The notes: generated by a model from the sequence alone, not told the origin. Positions 4,560 through 54,212 are shown, numbered from the stretch's first letter. The stretch: DNA of 64,000 nucleotides from Candidatus Anderseniibacteriota bacterium (GCA_016197005.1 JACPWO010000002.1:8483-72482), one strand, 5' to 3'. Translations and numbers: made by a program.

Positions 4560-4799
4560 ATGAAAACACTCGATATGTTAAAAATGTGTCTCAACTGGAA
4601 AGTGCTTGCTAGCATCATTGCGGTGATTGTCATCACGTATATCTTCTTCCCCAAAATTGCCGCGGCCGCTCCGTTCCTGCTGGTGTTAGTCTGTCCGCTC
4701 TCAATGGTGCTCATGATGCGCGGAATGCAGCATGGTGATAAGCACGACATGCCCAGCAAAGACACGACAAAAAACCTTACTCATAACCATGACGTATGA
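4560..4799 (+). CDS. Small membrane protein with a His-rich C-terminal tail (DUF2933-like); metal-associated.
   Basis: One TM helix, then MRGMQHGDKHDM...HNHD. Positioned between the HMA fusion gene and copZ. Confidence 0.4.
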   Translation: MKTLDMLKMCLNWKVLASIIAVIVITYIFFPKIAAAAPFLLVLVCPLSMVLMMRGMQHGDKHDMPSKDTTKNLTHNHDV

Positions 4800-10733: not shown

Positions 10734-11705
10734 ATGACCAAAAAACTCATTATTAGCCTTGTTGTTCTGGTAGCTATTCTTGTTGCGGGCATAGGTGGGT
10801 GGCTATACGTTACTCGCAGTCCCGAATATTCACTTGTTCTGGCAGCACGGGCAGTCAAAAATCACGACTACCAAGGATTTAAACAATATGTAGACGTAGG
10901 TCAAATAGTAAGCGATCTGGTGAATGATGCGGTTGCAGAAATTCAGAAACAGGTTAACGAAGACACCGAGGGCGATCCTTGGGCGCAACTCGGTGCTAAT
11001 CTGGGCAGTGCCTTTATTGGCGCCTATACTCCGCAACTCAAGGAGCAATTCACCGATCAGATTCGGAAAGGAGTAGAGGAAGGAAATTTTGGTCGAGAAG
11101 GCACCGATGCCAGCAAGATTAGTTTTTTTGATTTTTGGACAAAGACAACTGTTGAGAAGGAAGGCAAAGTAGCCAAGATAACTACCCCAACCTTCAAACT
11201 ACAAAATGACCAACCGTTCAGTTTCAATATGCGTCAATCCAACGGTCGTTGGCAGGTGTTTTCTATTGATTTTGACGTATCCGATCTAGCGTCTAATGAT
11301 GCTCCGGCAGCAGCAGATACGACTCAACGTGTAGCCTTTGGCACAAGGACAGATATTGGTGAAGGGTGGTTTTTAACCGCAACACAACCAGAGGCCTATA
11401 CTCCCACTAACCAGTTCAGCCAGCCGCCGGAAGGCAAAAAATATGTTGCCGTCGAAATTACCTACGAAAACACGTCTACAACCAAAGACAGCTTTTCAAC
11501 TTCACGGCTGACGCTCAAAGACACCGAGGATCACGCATATACCTCTACTTTCTTTGATTCGAAAGAGCCAAGCCTATCATCGGGCGATCTTGAGCCCAGC
11601 GGAACGATAAAAGGATATGTCACCTACTCAATGCCCATCGAGCTCGATCCAAAGCAACTCGTATATTCAAGTTCTCACGCTACGGTCATTTTTGAGCAGC
11701 AGTAA
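10734..11705 (+). CDS. Membrane-anchored DUF4352-like protein.
   Basis: N-terminal TM helix. The C-terminal segment KKYVAVEITYENTST...GTIKGYVTYSMP fits the DUF4352 beta-sandwich pattern. Confidence 0.45.
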   Translation: MTKKLIISLVVLVAILVAGIGGWLYVTRSPEYSLVLAARAVKNHDYQGFKQYVDVGQIVSDLVNDAVAEIQKQVNEDTEGDPWAQLGANLGSAFIGAYTPQLKEQFTDQIRKGVEEGNFGREGTDASKISFFDFWTKTTVEKEGKVAKITTPTFKLQNDQPFSFNMRQSNGRWQVFSIDFDVSDLASNDAPAAADTTQRVAFGTRTDIGEGWFLTATQPEAYTPTNQFSQPPEGKKYVAVEITYENTSTTKDSFSTSRLTLKDTEDHAYTSTFFDSKEPSLSSGDLEPSGTIKGYVTYSMPIELDPKQLVYSSSHATVIFEQQ

Positions 11706-11896
11706 ATAGGGCCGGTGTTGATAATACAGGCTGTAATAATTGTCGCATTTGTTTCAGCATAACCTCTGGTTGCGGATTTATCTCCTCCCAGTTCATGCTT
11801 AACCAATGTTCAAAAAACGTCTTTGATGGGGAGTATCTGAATTTGATCGTAGTGGTTGTTATTGACGTTGTAGTATCAGTCGTTTACATTAATTAG

Positions 11897-12187
11897 GTGA
11901 ACGAACTTAAAAAAATTGGTGACCTACCTCAAGCGCAGCAGAAAATTCTATTTACTGTTCTGCGGATTGGTAAGCCTGCGTTTCTAACATCTGAAGTTCA
12001 TAAAAAAGTTAGTGATGAAATGGCTGGACGCTCTGTGGGCGCCGTGTTGGGGTCGCTGTACCGAAATGGTTATCTAGATAAGGTGCAGGGAGGACGAGAT
12101 AAGCGCTGGGTGTTATCAAAACAAGCAGAAGCGGCACGTGATGATATTAAGCTACAGATTTCTAATGTTAAGATTTACTGGTCCTGA
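11897..12187 (+). CDS. Small protein that looks like a winged-helix DNA-binding protein; first gene of the helicase operon.
   Basis: 96 aa with an apparent GTG start. The LPQAQQKILFTVLRIG...LYRNGYLDKV...KRWVLS layout resembles a wHTH. An 11-nt gap separates it from the helicase gene. Confidence 0.35.
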   Translation: MNELKKIGDLPQAQQKILFTVLRIGKPAFLTSEVHKKVSDEMAGRSVGAVLGSLYRNGYLDKVQGGRDKRWVLSKQAEAARDDIKLQISNVKIYWS

Positions 12188-12198
12188 TATGTACAAAT

Positions 12199-15100
12199 AT
12201 GTCGGAGAAGGAAAATAAGGCCAAAGAATCAAACTCAACAACCCCTTTCATAAAAGAGGTTGGTAAATACTTTATGGAATTTCTGGAGACAGACTTTCAT
12301 AAAAGAAGGCTGCCTCGTAGGAGTATTAAACTACATAACGATAAGGGATTACTTACTGGTCTCAATCTCAGTAAGTATCCAAGTTTTTATAAAGTTGCAT
12401 ATAAGCTTGTTAACAATGCCTTCACTGACGCCGAGTTAACAATCCAAAAGGGCGTATACAAGGCAGACATACCGGAGTCGCTGCTTGATCTCATCAAGAA
12501 GCAAATAAATAAAGTTACCAATACCGAAGTTACCGCTCTCATTAAGGAGCTTGATGATTCAATCCAACAATCGTCAGTCAAATATAAAGACGACTATTTG
12601 CAGGCATTTAATTCAGTCATGGAGAATGCTGGCTCGGTATTTGAAAAACACATCATCCTCAATTTAGTAAAGAGTATAGAAAAGCCACTTGAAAATAATA
12701 AACTCGCCGATGAGAATGCCATTTTCCAGATAGAGGATGAGCTGACGAACATCTTTACAAAGAAGGTTGAAGATGCCGTAGCCGAATCTCTCAAGATTCT
12801 CTTAAGCGGCGATAAACCAAATACAAAGAAACTTTTAAAGGATGTGCTGGATATAGAGGACATCCGTGCCAGTTTGGCCAAGTTCTTTGAAATGTTTAAG
12901 GTGTCGGATCTTTTCAATGATCTACATGAGCTTTACCAGAATTTTAAAATAGAAGATAAGCAGGAATTTTATTTCTACTTTTACGATATTAGTTACCAAA
13001 AAACTAAGTATCCCATCTTCTACATCCCATTCTCTATTGAAAGACAAAGCGATACGTTTCTAATTACCTTCGATTCGCAAATTTATATCAATAAGAAAGC
13101 ATTGGCATACATCGTTCAGGAATATAACCTTGAGCGAGGCAAAAAGGGAGCACTGCAAACAATAGCCGATAGAATTATTTACCTCGCCGATCATGAGGAT
13201 GACTTGCCGTTGGTGTTACAAGACACACTGACAGAGATTTCAAACTTCTTTGACTTAGACACAAAACCTCAAGTGGCAAAACCAGACATACAATTGAGCA
13301 AGAGCCTGTATGTTACGGCGAGCACCAATGCATATATTGCCCTTTTCGATAAGTCAGACGAGGCACTATTAAATGATTATGAGGACATTCTTAATGCCGC
13401 CGCCGACAGTGTTTTAATGAAAGGCTTTCAGGTTTTGATAAATGATTTTATACACGAAAATCCTGAGTCTGTGGCAAAGCCCATCAGGGATGATTGGGAT
13501 AGTAAGGGAGTTGATGAGCGATTGGTATATAAAAGTCCCATCCCTCTCAACAGCGAGCAACAACAGATACTTTCTGCTATTCATAATGACAGGTGCAAAT
13601 ATGTGCTCGTTGAAGGTCCTCCGGGAACGGGGAAAAGCCACACAATCACTGCAATTGTTTTTGACACGATTCTGGAGAACAAATCGGTTCTCGTGCTATC
13701 GGATAAGAAGGAAGCGCTTGATGTAGTTGAGAAAAATATTGTGAACACTCTGAATAAGGTTCGCGTTGACGAGAAATTTCAGAATCCCATTTTGCGGTTA
13801 GGAAAAACTGGTAATACCTACAGTCAACTTCTTACTCAGTCATCTATTGAAGCTATTACACAGCAGTTCAGAGCCGTCAGAAGTAAATATCCTAATCTCA
13901 ATGAGCAGATAGATGTTGCGATAGAAGCATTGAGGAATGGTGTGAAGGGTCAGACTGATGCGTATCATCATATCTCGCTTGCCGATGTTAATGAACTGTC
14001 TTCATTGAAGAAGCACTTCGATGAAGCAGGTTTTTGTATCGACGTTGATGAAGCTATAAGCAACCCCGATTCTGTAGAGGAGCTTACAAAAATACGCTCT
14101 ATCTTCTTGAAGCTTAAAAATAGGATAAAAGAAAACAGAGACGTATCGTTTAACTTTGATTACACCAAAGAGCTGGGTGATGAGAATTCCAAGAACCTTG
14201 AAGAGATTATTTCTGCGTTGGAAGATATAGCGCGACTGGCAGAGGAAAGCCCGCGCCTCTTTAGTGAAAGTAAATTATCGTCTCTTTACGATCACGTTCA
14301 GAAGAACAAAGTAAAAGTAGAGAAATTGCTTGGTTATCTTGCAAGTGTGTCTGAGCTCACGAATTTATTCACTAAAAAGAAGCAGTATTTAGACTTACTT
14401 CACGTCGACAAGAATGAGCTTGATAGTTTAGCCACTATTAAAACAGTAGCGCAGCACGCTTTGTGGCTAGAAGGCATCGTCGAAAAGGTGAAATATTTTG
14501 CGAAAGATTCTCTTAGTCGTTTGAGTTCTTTTGATAAGTCGCATAGTGATGACGTTGTTGCTCTGAAGAATTATATTGACTCAGCAAAAAAGTTGCGGAA
14601 CGGATTGCTTGGCTACTTGGGGAAGAAAAGCAAGGTCGAGCAATTGAATCAGAGCTTCCGCAAGAATTTCCCTCTTTCTAAATTCGATGACCCGCATAAA
14701 CATCTAAAAGAATTAGAGGAAATTCTAGGTATCTATGAATACGTACAAGAACTTTGCGACGATAAATATCATCCGCAGGATATTGATCTGATACACTTAG
14801 TCACTTCGATTCTAAAGGATGGTGAACTGTATTTTACATCCGATCAGCTAACTGATATTCGCAATTCGTTTGATGTTACAAACAAAGTTGATGTAATCGC
14901 TCAAGAGATTTCTAGTTCTAAGTTTTCTGTTATGACGCTTCACGACCTGAATGATATTGCGGTCATTTCTGAAATTGGAGCGCTCTATGAAGAGTTGAGC
15001 GACCTTATGACTAAGGAAAAAGAGCTAATTGAATCGAATGTTGATCTAAAGAAGATCAAGAACATCAATATGCTTTTTCAAAAAGACAATCTTAAAGAAA

Positions 15101-16977
15101 TGATTGGAGAGATCAGTGTCTGCAAAGAATACGTAGATACACTCATTGAGGTTAATGATGATGTCGTTTATTTAAAGGAATCTTCTGACAATCACAAAAA
15201 TAGTTTTGCAAAGGCGGGCATCGACAATAGCTCTTTCTCTTCGTTATACGAAAACAAATTAACTGAGATATCGGATCTTGAATTTGAAAAGCTCGTCAGA
15301 TTTATCACTCTGCATCAAGAGCTGACAGAAAAATTTGATGATATTAAGGATCTCAGCTACGGAGAGCGAATGAAGCAAGTCGAGAATATTGTAACGATGC
15401 AAATGACATATCTGATGGATGAGAGATTCGTTGACTTCACCAATGACTTTAAAGCTGACGCAAAAGCATTAAAGCAGGTAATCAAGGAAAAGAAGAAGTT
15501 TCCTAAAGATCAATTCTCAAAACTCAAGAATGCATTCCCGTGTATTTTAGCCGGTATCCGTGACTATGCAGAATATATTCCCTTGGAGCCAGAGATATTT
15601 GACCTTGTCATCATCGATGAGGCATCTCAGGTAAGTATTGCGCAAGCATTCCCAGCTCTATTGAGAGCAAAGAAGGTTGTTGTGCTTGGGGATAGCCTGC
15701 AATTTAGTAACGTGAAGTCTGCTTTGGCGCGAGGCGACATTAACAAGCAGTATTTGGGTAGTCTGCGGGAAGTTTTCTTAAAAACAGTTGCTACCGAGGA
15801 AGAGACAGACAAGGTAGCCCGCCTTGAAAAATTCAATATCAAAGTTTCAATTCTCGATTTCTTCGGCTTCATTAATAATTACCAGACTCGTTTAGTTAAG
15901 CATTTCCGTGGATACCGGGAGCTTATTTCGTATTCAAATAAGTTCTTTTACAAAAACAGCCTACAGGTTATGAAAGTTCGAGGTTTGCCGATCAGTTCGG
16001 TCATTAAATTCTCTCAAGTAGACCATGACGGTAAGGAAGAAATGACTAAAAACACAAACGTGCCTGAGATAGAGTTCATTATCTCCGAGCTTAAAGCTTT
16101 AAAGGATCAAGACAAAAAATGCACCGTCGGTATCATTACCCCTCATACAAATCAGCAACGTCTACTTTATGAGAAGATTAGTGATCTGCCTGAATCTGAT
16201 TATTTCTTCGATGCGTTGAAGCTTAAGGTGATGACCTTCGACACATGTCAGGGTGAAGAAATGGATATTATTTATTATTCCATGGTGGCTACCGAAACGG
16301 AAGATAAATTAAACTATGTGTTCATTAGTGATCTCAATAATATCGATCTAGACGATGACGAAGGAAAAATTAAGGCACAACGTCTTAACGTCGGTTTAAG
16401 CCGAGCGAAGGAATGTATGCACTTTGTACTTAGCAAGCCAATTGATCAGTACGCGGGTACTGCAAAAGAATTTCTGCAGCACTACTCAAATGCTCTGCTT
16501 GAGGCTCAAAAAGAACCTGATAGTACTAGCGTAGATAAGAATTCCGAGATGGAGCCGCTGGTTCTGGAATGGATCAAACAGACGAAGTTTTGGGATGAGA
16601 ACAAAAATAATGCTGAAATATTGCCTCAGTTTGAACTTGGTAAATATCTCAAGCAGTTGGATCAGAGCTATAATCATCCTAACTATCGAGTGGATTTCCT
16701 TCTCGTATATCGCGACGAAGAAGGAAGTGAGCATAAAATCATTATTGAATATGATGGCTTCCTAGAACATTTTGGTGATGTGATGCATGTAGTCAATGAG
16801 TCAAATTACGAAGAATACTATTCATCAGAGGATGTATATCGACAGCACGTTCTAGAAGGTTATGGTTACCGATTCATTAGGATCAATAAGTTTAATCTTG
16901 GCGAGAACCCCATCGCCACGCTTGATTCTCGAATTCAGGAAATAGTAAAAAAAAACTTTACAATCACGAAATCGTAA
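12199..16977 (+). CDS. Giant 1592-aa SF1B (Upf1/DNA2-like) helicase with a C-terminal Vsr/DUF559-like PD-(D/E)xK nuclease domain. The architecture resembles the DUF4011-helicase-REase family.
   Basis: Walker A VLVEGPPGTGKSHT. Motif Ia VLVLSDKKEALD. Motif II LVIIDEASQV plus GDSLQF. Motif V TFDTCQGEEMDII. Motif VI LNVGLSRAKE. C-terminal YRVDFLLVY...IIIEYDGFLEHF...GYRFIRINKF matches the DUF559/Vsr-like fold. Confidence 0.85.
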   Translation: MSEKENKAKESNSTTPFIKEVGKYFMEFLETDFHKRRLPRRSIKLHNDKGLLTGLNLSKYPSFYKVAYKLVNNAFTDAELTIQKGVYKADIPESLLDLIKKQINKVTNTEVTALIKELDDSIQQSSVKYKDDYLQAFNSVMENAGSVFEKHIILNLVKSIEKPLENNKLADENAIFQIEDELTNIFTKKVEDAVAESLKILLSGDKPNTKKLLKDVLDIEDIRASLAKFFEMFKVSDLFNDLHELYQNFKIEDKQEFYFYFYDISYQKTKYPIFYIPFSIERQSDTFLITFDSQIYINKKALAYIVQEYNLERGKKGALQTIADRIIYLADHEDDLPLVLQDTLTEISNFFDLDTKPQVAKPDIQLSKSLYVTASTNAYIALFDKSDEALLNDYEDILNAAADSVLMKGFQVLINDFIHENPESVAKPIRDDWDSKGVDERLVYKSPIPLNSEQQQILSAIHNDRCKYVLVEGPPGTGKSHTITAIVFDTILENKSVLVLSDKKEALDVVEKNIVNTLNKVRVDEKFQNPILRLGKTGNTYSQLLTQSSIEAITQQFRAVRSKYPNLNEQIDVAIEALRNGVKGQTDAYHHISLADVNELSSLKKHFDEAGFCIDVDEAISNPDSVEELTKIRSIFLKLKNRIKENRDVSFNFDYTKELGDENSKNLEEIISALEDIARLAEESPRLFSESKLSSLYDHVQKNKVKVEKLLGYLASVSELTNLFTKKKQYLDLLHVDKNELDSLATIKTVAQHALWLEGIVEKVKYFAKDSLSRLSSFDKSHSDDVVALKNYIDSAKKLRNGLLGYLGKKSKVEQLNQSFRKNFPLSKFDDPHKHLKELEEILGIYEYVQELCDDKYHPQDIDLIHLVTSILKDGELYFTSDQLTDIRNSFDVTNKVDVIAQEISSSKFSVMTLHDLNDIAVISEIGALYEELSDLMTKEKELIESNVDLKKIKNINMLFQKDNLKEMIGEISVCKEYVDTLIEVNDDVVYLKESSDNHKNSFAKAGIDNSSFSSLYENKLTEISDLEFEKLVRFITLHQELTEKFDDIKDLSYGERMKQVENIVTMQMTYLMDERFVDFTNDFKADAKALKQVIKEKKKFPKDQFSKLKNAFPCILAGIRDYAEYIPLEPEIFDLVIIDEASQVSIAQAFPALLRAKKVVVLGDSLQFSNVKSALARGDINKQYLGSLREVFLKTVATEEETDKVARLEKFNIKVSILDFFGFINNYQTRLVKHFRGYRELISYSNKFFYKNSLQVMKVRGLPISSVIKFSQVDHDGKEEMTKNTNVPEIEFIISELKALKDQDKKCTVGIITPHTNQQRLLYEKISDLPESDYFFDALKLKVMTFDTCQGEEMDIIYYSMVATETEDKLNYVFISDLNNIDLDDDEGKIKAQRLNVGLSRAKECMHFVLSKPIDQYAGTAKEFLQHYSNALLEAQKEPDSTSVDKNSEMEPLVLEWIKQTKFWDENKNNAEILPQFELGKYLKQLDQSYNHPNYRVDFLLVYRDEEGSEHKIIIEYDGFLEHFGDVMHVVNESNYEEYYSSEDVYRQHVLEGYGYRFIRINKFNLGENPIATLDSRIQEIVKKNFTITKS

Positions 16978-17045
16978 GTGACGTTCAAGATTTAATTCGT
17001 GATCTTCGTAGTGGTAATGCAAAAGTATGCCCCAAATGTGGTGAA

Positions 17046-17681
17046 GTGAAGCCGCTATCTGATTTTCAGGATAGATCATTGGCTACAGGGGTTGGTAGGT
17101 TTTGTCGTGAGTGCAAAGTAGGATTGAGCGCTCATTACTACATTTCACCAAGCACTGAGAGACAGCAGAGGAATATTTATAGTCTCTCAAAGGGCGATGT
17201 GAATAAGCTGCATAGTTTTTCTGATACCCCGGAAAAATATGCGAGTGGAGGCAGCAAGGCACGAGAGAAAGTTCAATACCTAGAGAGTATTAAACATAAG
17301 TTTGATGGGTTACAGGTTGCCAAATACATAGCGGCTCGTAAAAAGTATGACGAAGCACTTGTGGCAAAAGCAGAGACCGAACTGAATCAGGATGTAGATT
17401 ATAGCGCCATCTTAAATGAGGCATTTAATAATCGCAGATCAGTCAAGATTCGCTATAAAGGATCATGGCGCACTGTTGATCCCTACTCTCTTAACAATAC
17501 TTATGTGGTTGCTTACTGCCATCTCGCTCGTGATATCCGAACATTTAGAGTAGACAGAATACAAGGAGCGGATTTGTCCGATTCATTTAGCTTAAATAGC
17601 AACTTGCAGGAAATGGCACAAAGTAGATTGGCTGAAGCTCCTAGCTTTCGAGGCTATAAGCGTCGGCGGCGCAGGTATTAA
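17046..17681 (+). CDS. Zinc-ribbon plus WYL-domain protein, a putative ligand-sensing regulator. The frame is open from 16926 with no canonical start, so it may be fused to the helicase.
   Basis: WYL-like segment RRSVKIRYKGSWRTVDPYSLNNTYVVAYCHLARDIRTFRVDRI. Zn ribbon CPKCG-x17-CRECK. The ORF-track GTG start at 17046 falls between the two Cys pairs. Confidence 0.55.
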   Translation: MKPLSDFQDRSLATGVGRFCRECKVGLSAHYYISPSTERQQRNIYSLSKGDVNKLHSFSDTPEKYASGGSKAREKVQYLESIKHKFDGLQVAKYIAARKKYDEALVAKAETELNQDVDYSAILNEAFNNRRSVKIRYKGSWRTVDPYSLNNTYVVAYCHLARDIRTFRVDRIQGADLSDSFSLNSNLQEMAQSRLAEAPSFRGYKRRRRRY

Positions 17682-17696
17682 ACTTAAGATTAATAT

Positions 17697-18449
17697 ATGT
17701 CCGAATACTACAATCCAAACCGTGGGCCGAAGTGGAATTACGGGGGAGATCAATGGAAGCTATCGCGCTCTAAGATCGACTTGTTTTTAGAATGCCCTCG
17801 TTGCTTCTACATCGATAACAAGCTTGGCGTAAAGCGGGTACCCGGCTTTCCTTTTGCGTTAAATAGCGCTGTGGATCATTTGCTGAAGCTGGAGTTTGAT
17901 ATTCATCGCGCCAATGGCGAGCAGCATCCACTACAAAAAGAATATGGCGTTGATGCCCGACCAGTGCCCCATGAAGAGCTTGATGAATGGAGACGCAACT
18001 TCGGTGGGGTACGTCATCTGCATGAAGCAACGGGCATGTTAGTCACCGGTGCCATTGACGATCTATGGATCAACAGTAATGACGAATACATTGTGGTGGA
18101 CTACAAGGCGACAGCAAAGGAGGAGGCCGTAACGAAACTAGATAAAGAATGGCAGGATGGGTATAAGCGGCAGATGGAAGTGTATCAGTGGTTGCTTCGT
18201 CAAAATGGCCTCAAAGTATCGGATACCGGCTATTTTGTATACTGCACCGGAAAGTTAGACGGCAAGTCATTTGATAAACGTATCGATTTTGATGTTCATC
18301 TAATCCCTTATGAAGGCAATAGTGAGTGGGTAGAAGGAACGTTGCTCAAGATAAAGGGATGTTTAGATGGTGACGCGATTCCGAAGACCGGCAAGAGTTG
18401 CGATTACTGTGCGTATTGGAATGCACGACGGTTGATTGAGTCGACATAA
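17697..18449 (+). CDS. Cas4-like/RecB-family PD-(D/E)xK nuclease with a predicted 4Fe-4S cluster.
   Basis: N-terminal LSRSKIDLFLECPRCFY. D...IVVDYK (D/ExK). QMEVYQWL (QxxxY). Three C-terminal Cys (C...CDYC). A 15-nt gap follows the WYL gene. Confidence 0.7.
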   Translation: MSEYYNPNRGPKWNYGGDQWKLSRSKIDLFLECPRCFYIDNKLGVKRVPGFPFALNSAVDHLLKLEFDIHRANGEQHPLQKEYGVDARPVPHEELDEWRRNFGGVRHLHEATGMLVTGAIDDLWINSNDEYIVVDYKATAKEEAVTKLDKEWQDGYKRQMEVYQWLLRQNGLKVSDTGYFVYCTGKLDGKSFDKRIDFDVHLIPYEGNSEWVEGTLLKIKGCLDGDAIPKTGKSCDYCAYWNARRLIEST

Positions 18450-18584
18450 TCTTGCTATGCTCGGAAAATTAAATGCCGAAATAACTTTTCACTTTTAGGA
18501 CACGTCTAAAGATAAGGATGGATTAAGGTGGGCGTGTATTGGCAAATAATTGAGTGTTTTATTCAGCTCCTCTACCGTTACTAG

Positions 18585-19211
18585 ATGGACGAGCTTGACC
18601 TTATAGTCTGGATCTTGTGGGCGCTTCGGATATTTTTCATATACGTTGGAGCGATACTTGTGGCCGTACTCTATCTTGATCGCTCGGGAGAATTCATAAC
18701 CGATGACCGCGGACTGTTTGTTATTGCTGTGGTCGTTGCCTTTATTTTTGCATTTTGGGCATGGCTCGGAAGCGGGGATCAACCTGAAGATGAGCAACCC
18801 GAGCAACATGCTCCGACTACCACACATATACAACCCATAGAGATATCAACCACAAGCCGCCCAATCCTTGCTGACAATGATGAAGAATATAGAAAGAAGG
18901 AGCGAGGACTACAAATACAAGCAACATTCTATCTCTTATCGCAACTCGTTGCGCTTGCTGCTGTCCTTGTAACGGTACTCATAATGGGGCTGCGAGCAGA
19001 AACGATATTGGTCGGAACCTTAAGTGCGGTGTTTATTATGATGCCCTATGCCTGGTGGGAGAGCCGGCAGCTGAAGCGTTCATTTTCTCAGAGGGGGCTT
19101 CGGGCTGAGCTGCGAGTTGTAACTATTGGAAAATACCTTGTCTTAGTGTGTGTTCTTCTCTTCCTCGCATACTATGCAGCTCTCGCCTTTGAGTTAGACG
19201 TAGGATTCTAG
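18585..19211 (+). CDS. Hypothetical five-TM membrane protein.
   Basis: Five hydrophobic helices. Acidic linker DQPEDEQPEQ. Confidence 0.4.
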   Translation: MDELDLIVWILWALRIFFIYVGAILVAVLYLDRSGEFITDDRGLFVIAVVVAFIFAFWAWLGSGDQPEDEQPEQHAPTTTHIQPIEISTTSRPILADNDEEYRKKERGLQIQATFYLLSQLVALAAVLVTVLIMGLRAETILVGTLSAVFIMMPYAWWESRQLKRSFSQRGLRAELRVVTIGKYLVLVCVLLFLAYYAALAFELDVGF

Positions 19212-19244
19212 AAGTACGCTTTTTAGAATAGTTGCCCTGATCCA

Positions 19245-19616
19245 TTGGGAGTATATGCTAATAATGTGATCTCCCAATATCTCCTCAGGGTAGCCGAGCA
19301 ACAAAACGACCGCGTGATTGATTTTACCAATAATACAAGCGATTTCGTTGAAGTCGTATTTGATGTCGATGGTAAGGAAGTAAAAGGATATTGTTATCCA
19401 CCGCGACATCATAAGCCGGTGCGCAGAATGAGGACAGGAGAGCCACTTCCTCTTGGAAAGCACGGAGTTGTGACAGCGTACGTGTATCCCGGAGAGGCAG
19501 ACCTTGACGAAAGGGACTTAGACATTCCGCCGTTTCTGCGTTGGCGTCTTAAGAAAAAAGTCCGATTTCATCGAACATCACAAAGTCCTGCTGTTGTTCT
19601 TACGGCAGCATATTAA
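19245..19616 (+). CDS. Hypothetical protein.
   Basis: 123-aa ORF co-directional with its neighbours. An antisense ORF overlaps it, so strand choice is uncertain. Confidence 0.3.
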   Translation: MGVYANNVISQYLLRVAEQQNDRVIDFTNNTSDFVEVVFDVDGKEVKGYCYPPRHHKPVRRMRTGEPLPLGKHGVVTAYVYPGEADLDERDLDIPPFLRWRLKKKVRFHRTSQSPAVVLTAAY

Positions 19617-53731: not shown

Positions 53732-54212
53732 ATGACTAAAACTCTTGTAGTTGGTGTCGCGGTAGCAGTTGTAGCGGCAGCTGGTGGGTATTATGTTGGG
53801 GTATGATCAAGGGTCGGAAAGAGCAGTTATGTTAGACGGAAAAAATGCGTCTGAAGGGGCTCGAGATAATGTAGCAACCAATCCAAAATTAGATGCAACT
53901 GAGCAAATGCTCGTTGGGGTGTGGGGTAACGATGATGACATTAATTTCTCACGAGAGTTTAAGGCTGATGGCACTGTCGTAGATTCATATATTGGAGATA
54001 ATGGCCCGACTTCTACCACTGGTACCTGGACTGTATTTGATGCCACTAGCACTGAGCCCGTTACGTTTCAACTTAATAACTTTGATAGCTACGTTAAAAT
54101 GATGATGGATGGTGACGCACTGTATTTTCGAGTTTCTAAGATTTCTACCGACCAACTCGAGCTCATTTACATGGAGCGAGGCGGAGCATTGCGATTCTCA
54201 AAAGTTCAGTAA
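53732..54212 (+). pseudogene. Signal-anchored protein split by a +1 frame change at a GGGG run. Either a frameshifted gene or a homopolymer sequencing error.
   Basis: ORF A is MTKTLVVGVAVAVVAAAGGYYVGV-stop (53732-53806). ORF B, in the +1 frame from 53784, continues as ...YDQGSERAV... Removing one G at 53797-53800 joins them. Confidence 0.35.

Follow-up and report, generated by a model that had tools for sequence, protein, structure and literature searches.

The window analysed here is a stretch of 64,000 nt from Candidatus Anderseniibacteriota bacterium (GCA_016197005.1, JACPWO010000002.1:8483-72482), and the subject of this report is a pair of overlapping reading frames on its plus strand that meet at a run of nine adenines (A9). 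According to the open reading frame (ORF) list, its translation and Pfam, the zero-frame ORF at 12199..16977 encodes a 1592-aa Upf1-like superfamily 1 (SF1) helicase with a C-terminal Vsr/REase_MTES_1575-like nuclease domain. The second frame, in -1 relation to the helicase, is open from 16926 to 17681; past the run, at 16956..17681, it encodes a linker helix, a zinc (Zn) ribbon, a helical domain and a WYL domain, as judged from translation, homology and an AlphaFold (AF2) model. The run itself, GT[A AAA AAA AA]C, occupies positions 16947..16955. In the reading developed below, the zero frame would give a short isoform of a single protein, and the -1-frame ORF would supply the C-terminal module of a long isoform.

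The 3' end of the helicase frame reads ...CAG GAA ATA GTA AAA AAA AAC TTT ACA ATC ACG AAA TCG TAA, with the stop seven codons past the A9 run. The zero-frame tail beyond the run (NFTITKS plus TAA, 16956..16977; 22 nt including the stop) is short and unconserved, and it overlaps the conserved -1-frame codons for LYNHEIV. Just 5' of the run, the -1 frame is closed by a TGA at 16923..16925, and the third frame ends at a TGA at 16979..16981 (read as ACT TTA CAA TCA CGA AAT CGT AAG TGA). With respect to the helicase frame the run has the phase A_AAA_AAA (GT[A AAA AAA] AAC), and in the WYL frame it is read as AAA AAA AAA (KKK). The -1-frame ORF translates as FSNSGNSKKKLYNHEIVSDVQDLIRDLRSGNAKVCPKCGEV...CREC...WYL. 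From 16926 onwards this frame of the window is devoid of ATG, GTG and TTG until a GTG at 17046, which is its sole canonical start and sits inside the Zn ribbon (17028..17114), between CPKC (17028-17039) and CREC (17103-17114), the Cys columns of which are near-invariant among homologues; between the TGA at 16923 and NHEIV, not one codon of the window is a one-base neighbour of ATG. One additional A in the mRNA, or a -1 shift on the run, would yield ...QEIVKKKLYNHEIV..., a protein of 1827 aa.

The position of the run, the -1 frame opening at 16926 inside the helicase 3' end, the lack of a start codon before a ribbon-splitting GTG, and the heptamer in helicase phase had all been described in an earlier reading of this DNA made from the sequence alone (the original prediction), and all of them are confirmed by the sequence. 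Some particulars need to be corrected: the ribbon is CPKC-x21-CREC rather than x17, the fusion would comprise 1827 aa and not about 1840, and the junction, proposed to be KK followed by KKLYNHEIV, is ...QEIVKKKLYNHE with three Lys.

An A9 run in 64 kb is unremarkable by itself, as at least one occurred in 93 of 100 shuffles. On neither strand of the window does any A/T run other than the slip site reach 8 nt; two (overlapping) A8 matches were observed against 10.4 +/- 4.1 expected from dinucleotide-preserving shuffles, i.e., long A/T homopolymers are depleted. By its gene content the window is part of a bacterial chromosome. Scanning the 64-kb window for tRNAs and for Rfam families at gathering thresholds gave no match. 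A promoter and terminator scan of positions 11500-19500 returned counts equal to chance; it revealed no internal promoter for the WYL frame and no promoter or ribosome-binding site (RBS) signal above chance.

Homologues of the -1-frame translation form 92 protein clusters, all annotated as stand-alone, N-terminally truncated proteins of 143-285 aa, which typically begin with 'MRSGAAKVCPQCGEI' or 'LRSG...'. For comparison at the DNA level, 22 distinct loci in the -1 state were compared, 21 of which entered the analyses of start codons, Lys codons and variability; a decaying pair (L033/L034) was set apart. The 22 loci are phylogenetically related, and the counts given here are not counts of independent events. 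They include two Minisyncoccia metagenome-assembled genomes (MAGs), a Kaiserbacteria MAG and a MAG binned as Gammaproteobacteria, and their identity to the window ranges from 37 to 86% in the WYL part and from 34 to 74% in the C-terminal half of the helicase. In all 22 the run is unbroken and lies at the same helicase codon, following GTA (A9 in 16 loci, A10 in five, A11 in one); the Val codon is GTA in all loci of the -1 clade that were read. The zero-frame stop follows 5-22 nt past the run, and the WYL frame is at -1, in each of the 22. The longer runs arise via substitution of the next base, by which the frame relation is kept. From the run onward, the peptide SKKKLY[N/K]HEIVSxIQxTIRDL[R/Q]SGAAKVCPxCGEI is conserved in all loci. 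In L011, L013, L016, L019, L029 and L030, a stop in the -1 frame is found 2-5 codons 5' of the run, so close that entry into the WYL frame must be confined to the run. Position and conservation of the run in 22 distinct loci, as compared here, are far beyond chance.

L001 and L002, two independent assemblies from other sequencing runs, match the window without a difference across the junction. In two diverged loci (82% and 85% WYL identity), exactly A9 lies within a near-invariant block of about 80 nt, flanked by sequence rich in synonymous changes. The run length agrees within four sets of near-identical independent assemblies, namely window/L001/L002, L019/L020, L035/L036 and L033/L034. Between the run and the first Cys codon, no ATG is present in any of the 21 loci analysed, and ATG, GTG and TTG are all missing in 9 of them. 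The TTG that gene callers pick as a start, 49 nt past the run in about 9 of the 21 loci, is one of six synonymous codons (CTT, TTG, TTA, CTG, CTC, CTA) of a conserved Leu. The stand-alone WYL proteins of the databases thus appear, from this codon usage, to be annotation artefacts. Searches for near-identical DNA in plasmid and phage collections gave no match, nor did a protein scan of viral contigs or a search for a degenerate junction DNA pattern.

The decaying pair deserves separate mention. L033 (470-760) and L034 (1-330) carry TAG and TAA nonsense codons at conserved Glu codons of the nuclease domain; their run has ten A's (A10), and, owing to a net loss of 1 nt, the WYL frame stands at +1 rather than -1. 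In the Kaiserbacteria MAG (L028, 1304-3052), the helicase frame is open for just 582 codons 5' of the run and the downstream ORF contains masked (N) bases, so that this copy may be disrupted or mis-assembled.

The variability of each alignment column was measured by codon position in the 21 loci. Over the 90 nt 5' of the run, variability falls mostly on the third position of the helicase frame (35.5 vs 9.9 and 4.6). From run+11 on it falls on the third position of the WYL frame, both in the 20 nt within which the helicase frame is still open (7.6 vs 2.2 and 1.0) and farther downstream (21.6 vs 7.3 and 8.4). By this measure, the frame under coding selection switches precisely at the run, the helicase frame giving way to the WYL frame. 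The helicase-frame tails past the run differ from locus to locus (NFTITKS, NSTNMKL, KLQTTR, KI...). The WYL part, with 51-65% identity in most loci, is better conserved than the C-terminal half of the helicase (34-45%) and shows clear third-position periodicity. The Lys codons within the run are AAA in 63 of 63 cases, whereas these genes use AAA for 37-73% of their Lys residues (window, 49%); the naive probability of an all-AAA run is about 10^-16.5, a figure overstated by the kinship of the loci. The unbroken run persists even in loci with a GC content at third codon positions (GC3) of 0.58. Judged by codon choice, the homopolymer is under constraint at the nucleotide level.

A query composed of the nuclease domain and the -1-frame product retrieved a large family of related helicases (50-63% identity), with alignments crossing the junction for about 55 more residues. 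The in-frame extensions of these proteins follow the consensus ...LDxRIxxLxKxxxxNHEIVxxIHETIEGLxxGxMKECPKCKxxKxxxxFxDxSLIxGxGRxCxxCK within one frame, and usually then carry a second, topoisomerase-type zinc finger; the Zn ribbon of the window aligns with the first of the two. The -1 peptide of the window alone (NHEIV...CPKC...CREC) matched in-frame extensions at E values of 7e-19 (P0113) and 2e-18 (P0125), with 50-52% identity and without gaps over 52 residues. Given this homology to in-frame extensions, the peptide past the run belongs ancestrally to the helicase polypeptide. An exhaustive profile-free search identified full-length in-frame helicase-Zn ribbon proteins of about 1450-1615 aa. 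One protein of 1697 aa (P0274) represents a helicase-nuclease-Zn ribbon-Zn ribbon-WYL architecture in a single ORF, and a further search added P0226 and P0228, which are likewise one-ORF helicase-restriction endonuclease (REase)-Zn ribbon-WYL proteins, making three such distant relatives in all.

At the DNA level, relatives differ at the junction, where A9 is present in two of the three one-ORF relatives (L040 and L041) and absent from the third (L042). An in-frame helicase-Zn ribbon junction read as DNA (L032) has no A-run, and that of L042 (GTT AAA AAT AGA) has none either. L041 at 758-766 reads GAA ATT GTA AAA AAA AAC TTC AAG AAT GAC, i.e., GT-A9-C in the phase of the window, but with the Zn ribbon-WYL part in the zero frame. 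L040 at 4652-4660 has an in-frame A9 in another codon phase (TGT AAA AAA AAA CTA). In both L040 and L041, stops in the other two frames are only a few codons away from the run; slippage there would therefore yield a short form, the long form being the default, a polarity opposite to that of the window clade. The loci read here thus place members of the wider family in one of three states, namely an in-frame module lacking the run, an in-frame module with A9, or a -1 module with A9-A11. The -1 state has been retained through extensive divergence; it probably goes back to an in-frame ancestor with a poly-A run, from which a single base was lost within the run or immediately 3' of it. The in-frame Zn ribbon-type helicase homologue of L032 (290-6917) is itself split into parts of 879 aa and 638 aa by a DDE transposase gene on the opposite strand.

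We consider it probable (about 0.8) that the helicase gene and the "WYL gene" constitute one recoded gene, with slippage inferred from these comparisons. Standard decoding would yield the 1592-aa helicase-nuclease. In a fraction of expression events, the frame would move to -1 at the run to give ...EIVKKK-LYNHEIV..., the 1827-aa long form. The favoured route would be realignment of RNA polymerase (RNAP) on a homopolymeric 9-bp RNA:DNA hybrid with addition of one A, so that the mRNA contains A10; part of the long form may also come from a ribosomal -1 shift on A_AAA_AAA. The slippage efficiency would then set the ratio of two isoforms, a bare helicase-nuclease and one with a Zn ribbon-WYL module. 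Addition of two A's, or loss of one, would lead to the TGA at 16979-81 and another short product, and addition of three would give the short form plus one Lys. The frameshift or slippage proposed in the original prediction is thus supported by the run, the -1 relation and the peptide shared by 22 loci, by the switch in the frame under selection, and by the contiguous in-frame homologues.

Bacterial RNAP slips efficiently in vivo on 9 A or T, and its RNA:DNA hybrid measures 9-10 bp (PMC5009743, PMC3711429). An A/T run of at least 8-9 nt at the frame transition, the length expected for transcriptional realignment (PMC3711429, PMC5009743), is found as A9-A11 in the 22 loci, together with conservation of the run at the nucleotide level and a downstream frame under coding selection with an early zero-frame stop. 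For -1 frameshifting, the in-phase X_XXY_YYZ heptamer is found as well, as GT A_AAA_AAA in all loci. Four observations favour RNAP slippage: no run has fewer than 9 A's, which equals the length of the RNA:DNA hybrid; the two A's past the heptamer are as invariant as the rest; the in-frame A9 of L040 stands in a different codon phase, pointing to a phase-independent need for the homopolymer; and no frameshift stimulator is supported.

Three candidate stimulators were considered. A possible hairpin 7 nt past the run (16963..17003), with AUCACGAA at 16963-70 pairing with UUCGUGAU at 16996-17003, forms an 8-bp stem in the window fold and is pairable in 84% of cells. The stem is composed of conserved His-Glu and Arg-Asp codons, its covariation equals that of shuffles, and the window fold has an ordinary energy (z = -0.08); a function as frameshift stimulator is not supported. 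An upstream Shine-Dalgarno (SD)-like element is not conserved: some loci have AGGAG, but AGGAA, CAAGAA or CAGAAT stands in its place in the window and in others, and the AGGAG-like motif is formed by Gln-Glu codons only 5 nt from the run. RNAalifold also proposed a 4-bp hairpin (16926-16929/16938-16941, 5 nt 5' of the run) with a helix of about -1.5 kcal/mol, the covariation of which was reached by 0 of 500 shuffles. All four pairs involve third codon positions, and the C/G vs T/A state tracks the GC3 of the locus; the covariation is probably compositional, and this hairpin was not retained.

The main competitor, a minority possibility that nevertheless carries some weight, is that the fusion is made mainly by programmed ribosomal -1 frameshifting at A_AAA_AAA, the mechanism known from E. 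coli dnaX and IS3. The heptamer is correctly phased in all loci and is listed as shift-prone (PMC3711429), and the potential 8-bp stem begins 9 nt past it. A heptamer would suffice for the ribosome, yet the run is never shorter than 9, and its 8th and 9th A, in the third WYL-frame Lys codon, are never replaced by G in 21 loci despite about 45% AAG usage. The stem lacks covariation, the window fold has z = -0.08, the AGGAG motif is unconserved and would stand just 5 nt from the run, and the other codon phase of the A9 in L040 fits a phase-independent homopolymer requirement. Variation of the run in the DNA itself, by slipped-strand mispairing that would switch the gene between a fused ON and a split OFF state, seems very unlikely. 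Poly-A tracts are slippery for DNA polymerase too (PMC3711429), the loci differ in run length (9, 10 or 11), and in-frame A9 relatives exist, but all 22 distinct clade loci are in the -1 state, the A10 and A11 runs having arisen by substitution with the frame kept. Moreover, no in-frame member of the clade was found among the 92 clusters, none of which exceeds 285 aa, or in the exhaustive search, and the run length is identical in four pairs of independent assemblies.

Separate synthesis of the Zn ribbon-WYL part, from a non-canonical or weak start (ATT at 16995, GTG at 17046) or by termination-reinitiation past the helicase stop, would agree with the annotation of 92 stand-alone WYL proteins of 143-285 aa and with the TTG found 49 nt past the run in about 9 of 21 loci. 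This TTG is a synonymous codon of a conserved Leu; an ATG precedes the ribbon in no locus, and in 9 of 21 there is neither a GTG nor a TTG either. Selection on the WYL frame and the LY[N/K]HEIV motif, which is homologous to in-frame sequence of related helicases, begin 5' of the helicase stop and of all candidate starts; initiation at GTG 17046 would cost the protein one half of its Zn ribbon, and promoter and RBS signals do not rise above chance. Separate initiation is accordingly a most improbable source of the WYL part. The original prediction had asked whether orthologous loci encode a WYL protein with its own canonical start and RBS; alignment to such loci revealed none, the annotated TTG starts being the internal Leu codon. 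A sequencing or assembly indel (A10 read as A9), which the original prediction had put forward as another option, is refuted by the near-identical and diverged independent assemblies that share the out-of-frame state. Homopolymers are error-prone and the related pair L033/L034 is clearly decaying, but the same state recurs in independent assemblies and diverged lineages, across many samples and pipelines, and a WYL part that is better conserved than the C-terminal half of the helicase and shows third-position periodicity is incompatible with an untranslated remnant; an indel, or a recently broken pseudogene with an unexpressed WYL part, is therefore extremely improbable.

Several points weigh against the recoding interpretation as such, or limit how far it can be taken. 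That slippage takes place is deduced from sequence comparison, and so are the identity of the slipping polymer, the ratio of the isoforms and the biological role. With A_AAA_AAA in phase at all loci, ribosomal -1 shifting and RNAP slippage are not separable by sequence. None of the three stimulatory elements (downstream stem, AGGAG-like motif, upstream hairpin) is supported. The 22 loci are kin, and naive probabilities overstate their independence. Finally, the clade could stem from a single tolerated frameshift mutation rescued by the A-run, in which case the gene would still depend on slippage but would be less "programmed".

The helicase part matched the Pfam families AAA_11 (58.8 bits) and AAA_12 (65.8 bits) against a cut-off of 27, and its core has IGHMBP2 and Upf1/NAM7 as the nearest solved chains; the C-terminal match to REase_MTES_1575 is weak. 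The WYL domain, an SH3-like barrel at 17406..17570, was assigned to PF13280 with an E value of 2.6e-13 and 50.2 bits (cut-off 21.8). Foldseek aligned the barrel with the WYL domains of PafBC, DriD, CapW and BrxR at a root-mean-square deviation of 2-3 Å over about 80-86 aligned columns; among the matches to DriD and CapW, several are structures bound to single-stranded DNA (ssDNA). The WYL module is a probable sensor of ssDNA or of a ligand. Pfam detected no helix-turn-helix (HTH) domain before the WYL domain, where the AF2 model has a helix, the Zn ribbon and the helical domain; lacking an HTH, the product would not be a WYL transcription factor.

AF2 modelled the last 435 residues of the conceptual fusion with a mean predicted local distance difference test score (pLDDT) of 81.8. 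A nuclease domain predicted with confidence, the last helix of which is ...RIQEIVKK, comes first; next are a low-confidence KKKLY stretch that coincides with the slip site and a helix (NHEIV...RDLRSG), followed by the Zn ribbon, a second flexible linker, the helical domain and the WYL barrel. In this model the run thus encodes a disordered Lys linker between folded domains, in which one Lys more or less should be harmless.

Searches with PADLOC and NCBIfam revealed similarity to PDC-S37, MkoA/C, Hhe and ProA at E values of 1e-19 to 1e-41, all of it sub-threshold, with the PADLOC matches being partial. The curated cut-offs were not reached (ProA, 140 bits vs 1500; Hhe, 78 vs 2000). The window system resembles PDC-S37, Mokosh MkoA/MkoC, Hhe and ProA in its Upf1-like SF1 core and in the combination of a nuclease domain with a neighbouring nuclease gene. 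It differs from them in its architecture and in scores far below the cut-offs. We infer a two-gene helicase-nuclease module of the defence/repair type, in which a minority of the helicases would bear the Zn ribbon-WYL tail.

In the PIF1-WYL protein of Thermotoga elfii, the C-terminal WYL domain on an SF1 helicase is an accessory ssDNA-binding module (bioRxiv 10.1101/163188). The window protein would likewise have its WYL domain C-terminal to an SF1 helicase; unlike PIF1-WYL, its helicase is Upf1-like (AAA_11/AAA_12), and attachment of the WYL domain would be conditional on recoding. From DriD, CapW, BrxR and PafBC it differs by its lack of an HTH and by the Zn ribbon and helical domain placed ahead of its WYL domain.

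As to the recoding, the nearest precedents are dnaX of Thermus thermophilus (tau/gamma), which uses A9, and the two-ORF dnaX of Chlorobi, in which RNAP slips on A9-A10 in the coding region and mRNAs with extra A's are formed (PMC5009743, PMC3711429). The arrangement described here shares with dnaX realignment a common N-terminus with two C-termini, and both polarities are found among relatives (here, L040/L041 vs the window clade). It differs in that the protein is an SF1 helicase-nuclease with a WYL domain and not a clamp-loader subunit, that slippage is presumed from the comparisons above, and that the hosts belong to an uncultivated, Patescibacteria-type lineage. With E. coli dnaX and the OrfAB products of IS1/IS3 (A_AAA_AAG or A_AAA_AAA) it has the in-phase A-rich heptamer in common; as in IS1/IS3, a -1 shift would fuse overlapping ORFs into a longer, functionally distinct protein, with the zero frame stopping soon after. 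However, the E. coli dnaX and IS sites need 6-7 A's plus an SD-like element and/or a hairpin or pseudoknot, whereas the sites described here have at least 9 A's and no supported stimulator.

Split or frameshifted genes are expressed via RNAP slippage on homopolymers of about 9 or more nucleotides in the case of mxiE of Shigella flexneri and of the poly(A)-rescued genes of insect endosymbionts, both of which PMC5009743 mentions. There, as proposed here, overlapping ORFs or a frameshifted gene yield one protein only via slippage. Endosymbiont genomes are reduced and AT-rich; in contrast, the out-of-frame state described here is conserved in a deep clade under clear purifying selection, and long A/T runs are otherwise depleted in the window, so that genome-wide poly(A) sloppiness is not the case. 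To our knowledge, conserved recoding sites in non-mobile bacterial genes are few, examples being prfB, dnaX, copA, cdd and mxiE. We found no relevant full-text description of recoding in WYL, helicase or defence genes or in bacteria of the candidate phyla radiation (CPR), within a literature coverage that was incomplete. On the comparative evidence, this is a real and conserved recoding site that works by an already known type of mechanism, in a family for which recoding was neither described in the literature searched nor recognised in the 92 database entries, all of them split.

The helicase-nuclease would thus represent a deep and well-conserved case of recoding in a large protein of uncultivated, mostly Patescibacteria-type bacteria. 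Every annotation pipeline at present makes two genes of it, a "helicase" and a truncated "WYL domain protein" for which the start is wrong, and all 92 clusters appear to be mis-annotated in this way. The WYL sensor would be an optional C-terminal module of the enzyme, present at a sub-stoichiometric level, and not a separate regulator. The in-frame A9 relatives offer a natural experiment on why two isoforms persist. Frame breaks at conserved homopolymers in metagenomes should, as a word of warning, not be "corrected" as errors. A rather doubtful extension of the recoding interpretation is that the A-run, maintained throughout a Patescibacteria-centred gene family, serves as a tuned device for the stoichiometry of sensor-bearing and sensor-less isoforms, with both polarities in use. 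Since the frequency of RNAP slippage depends on the speed of incorporation of the next nucleotide, the ratio could then respond to disturbance of nucleotide pools by phage infection or DNA damage; if this were true, RNA polymerase infidelity would be part of the sensing circuit of a defence/repair system.

Immediately 3' of the recoded gene, at 17697..18449 on the plus strand, lies a gene for a 250-aa Cas4-like PD-(D/E)XK nuclease (Pfam PDDEXK_1, PADLOC Cas4), a likely partner of the helicase. A nuclease gene close 3' of the WYL stop is also present in eight further -1 loci (L005, L007, L008, L009, L011, L013, L029, L035) and in the in-frame loci L040 and L041, with gaps of 3-137 nt, mostly 3-25 nt, between the WYL stop and the nuclease gene. 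Outside the window, these nucleases comprise about 500 aa and were assigned to RNase_H_2 (with Cas4/PD-(D/E)XK matches in 3 of 5; only faint ones in L040/L041) or to DUF2779 alone. A tblastn search with the window protein alone had made the downstream gene appear unconserved; this view was revised when ORF extraction and Pfam showed the recurrent nuclease, which suggests a two-gene module.

Upstream of the helicase, a small ORF at 11897..12187 (plus strand) encodes 96 aa without any family match. It is 62% conserved in L004 (167-460), and its membership in the module is uncertain. In L035/L036, the same position is occupied by a 67-aa HTH_17/MerR-like ORF (L035 850-1053) that overlaps the helicase start. 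The small upstream ORF may code for a regulator of the module.

Elsewhere in the window, an ATG at 53733 opens a hydrophobic 24-aa peptide (MTKTLVVGVAVAVVAAAGGYYVGV*) that stops just past a GGGG at 53797-53800. A 142-aa ORF (53784-54212) follows in another frame, and removal of one G would join it to the 24-aa peptide to form a membrane-anchored or secreted protein. The original prediction had taken this second frame break as a hint of indel errors in the assembly; however, L037-L039, three further independent assemblies, have the same G4 within the same surrounding sequence, so that no such hint is left. The break is genuine sequence, either a real frameshift mutation or the boundary of two separate small ORFs.

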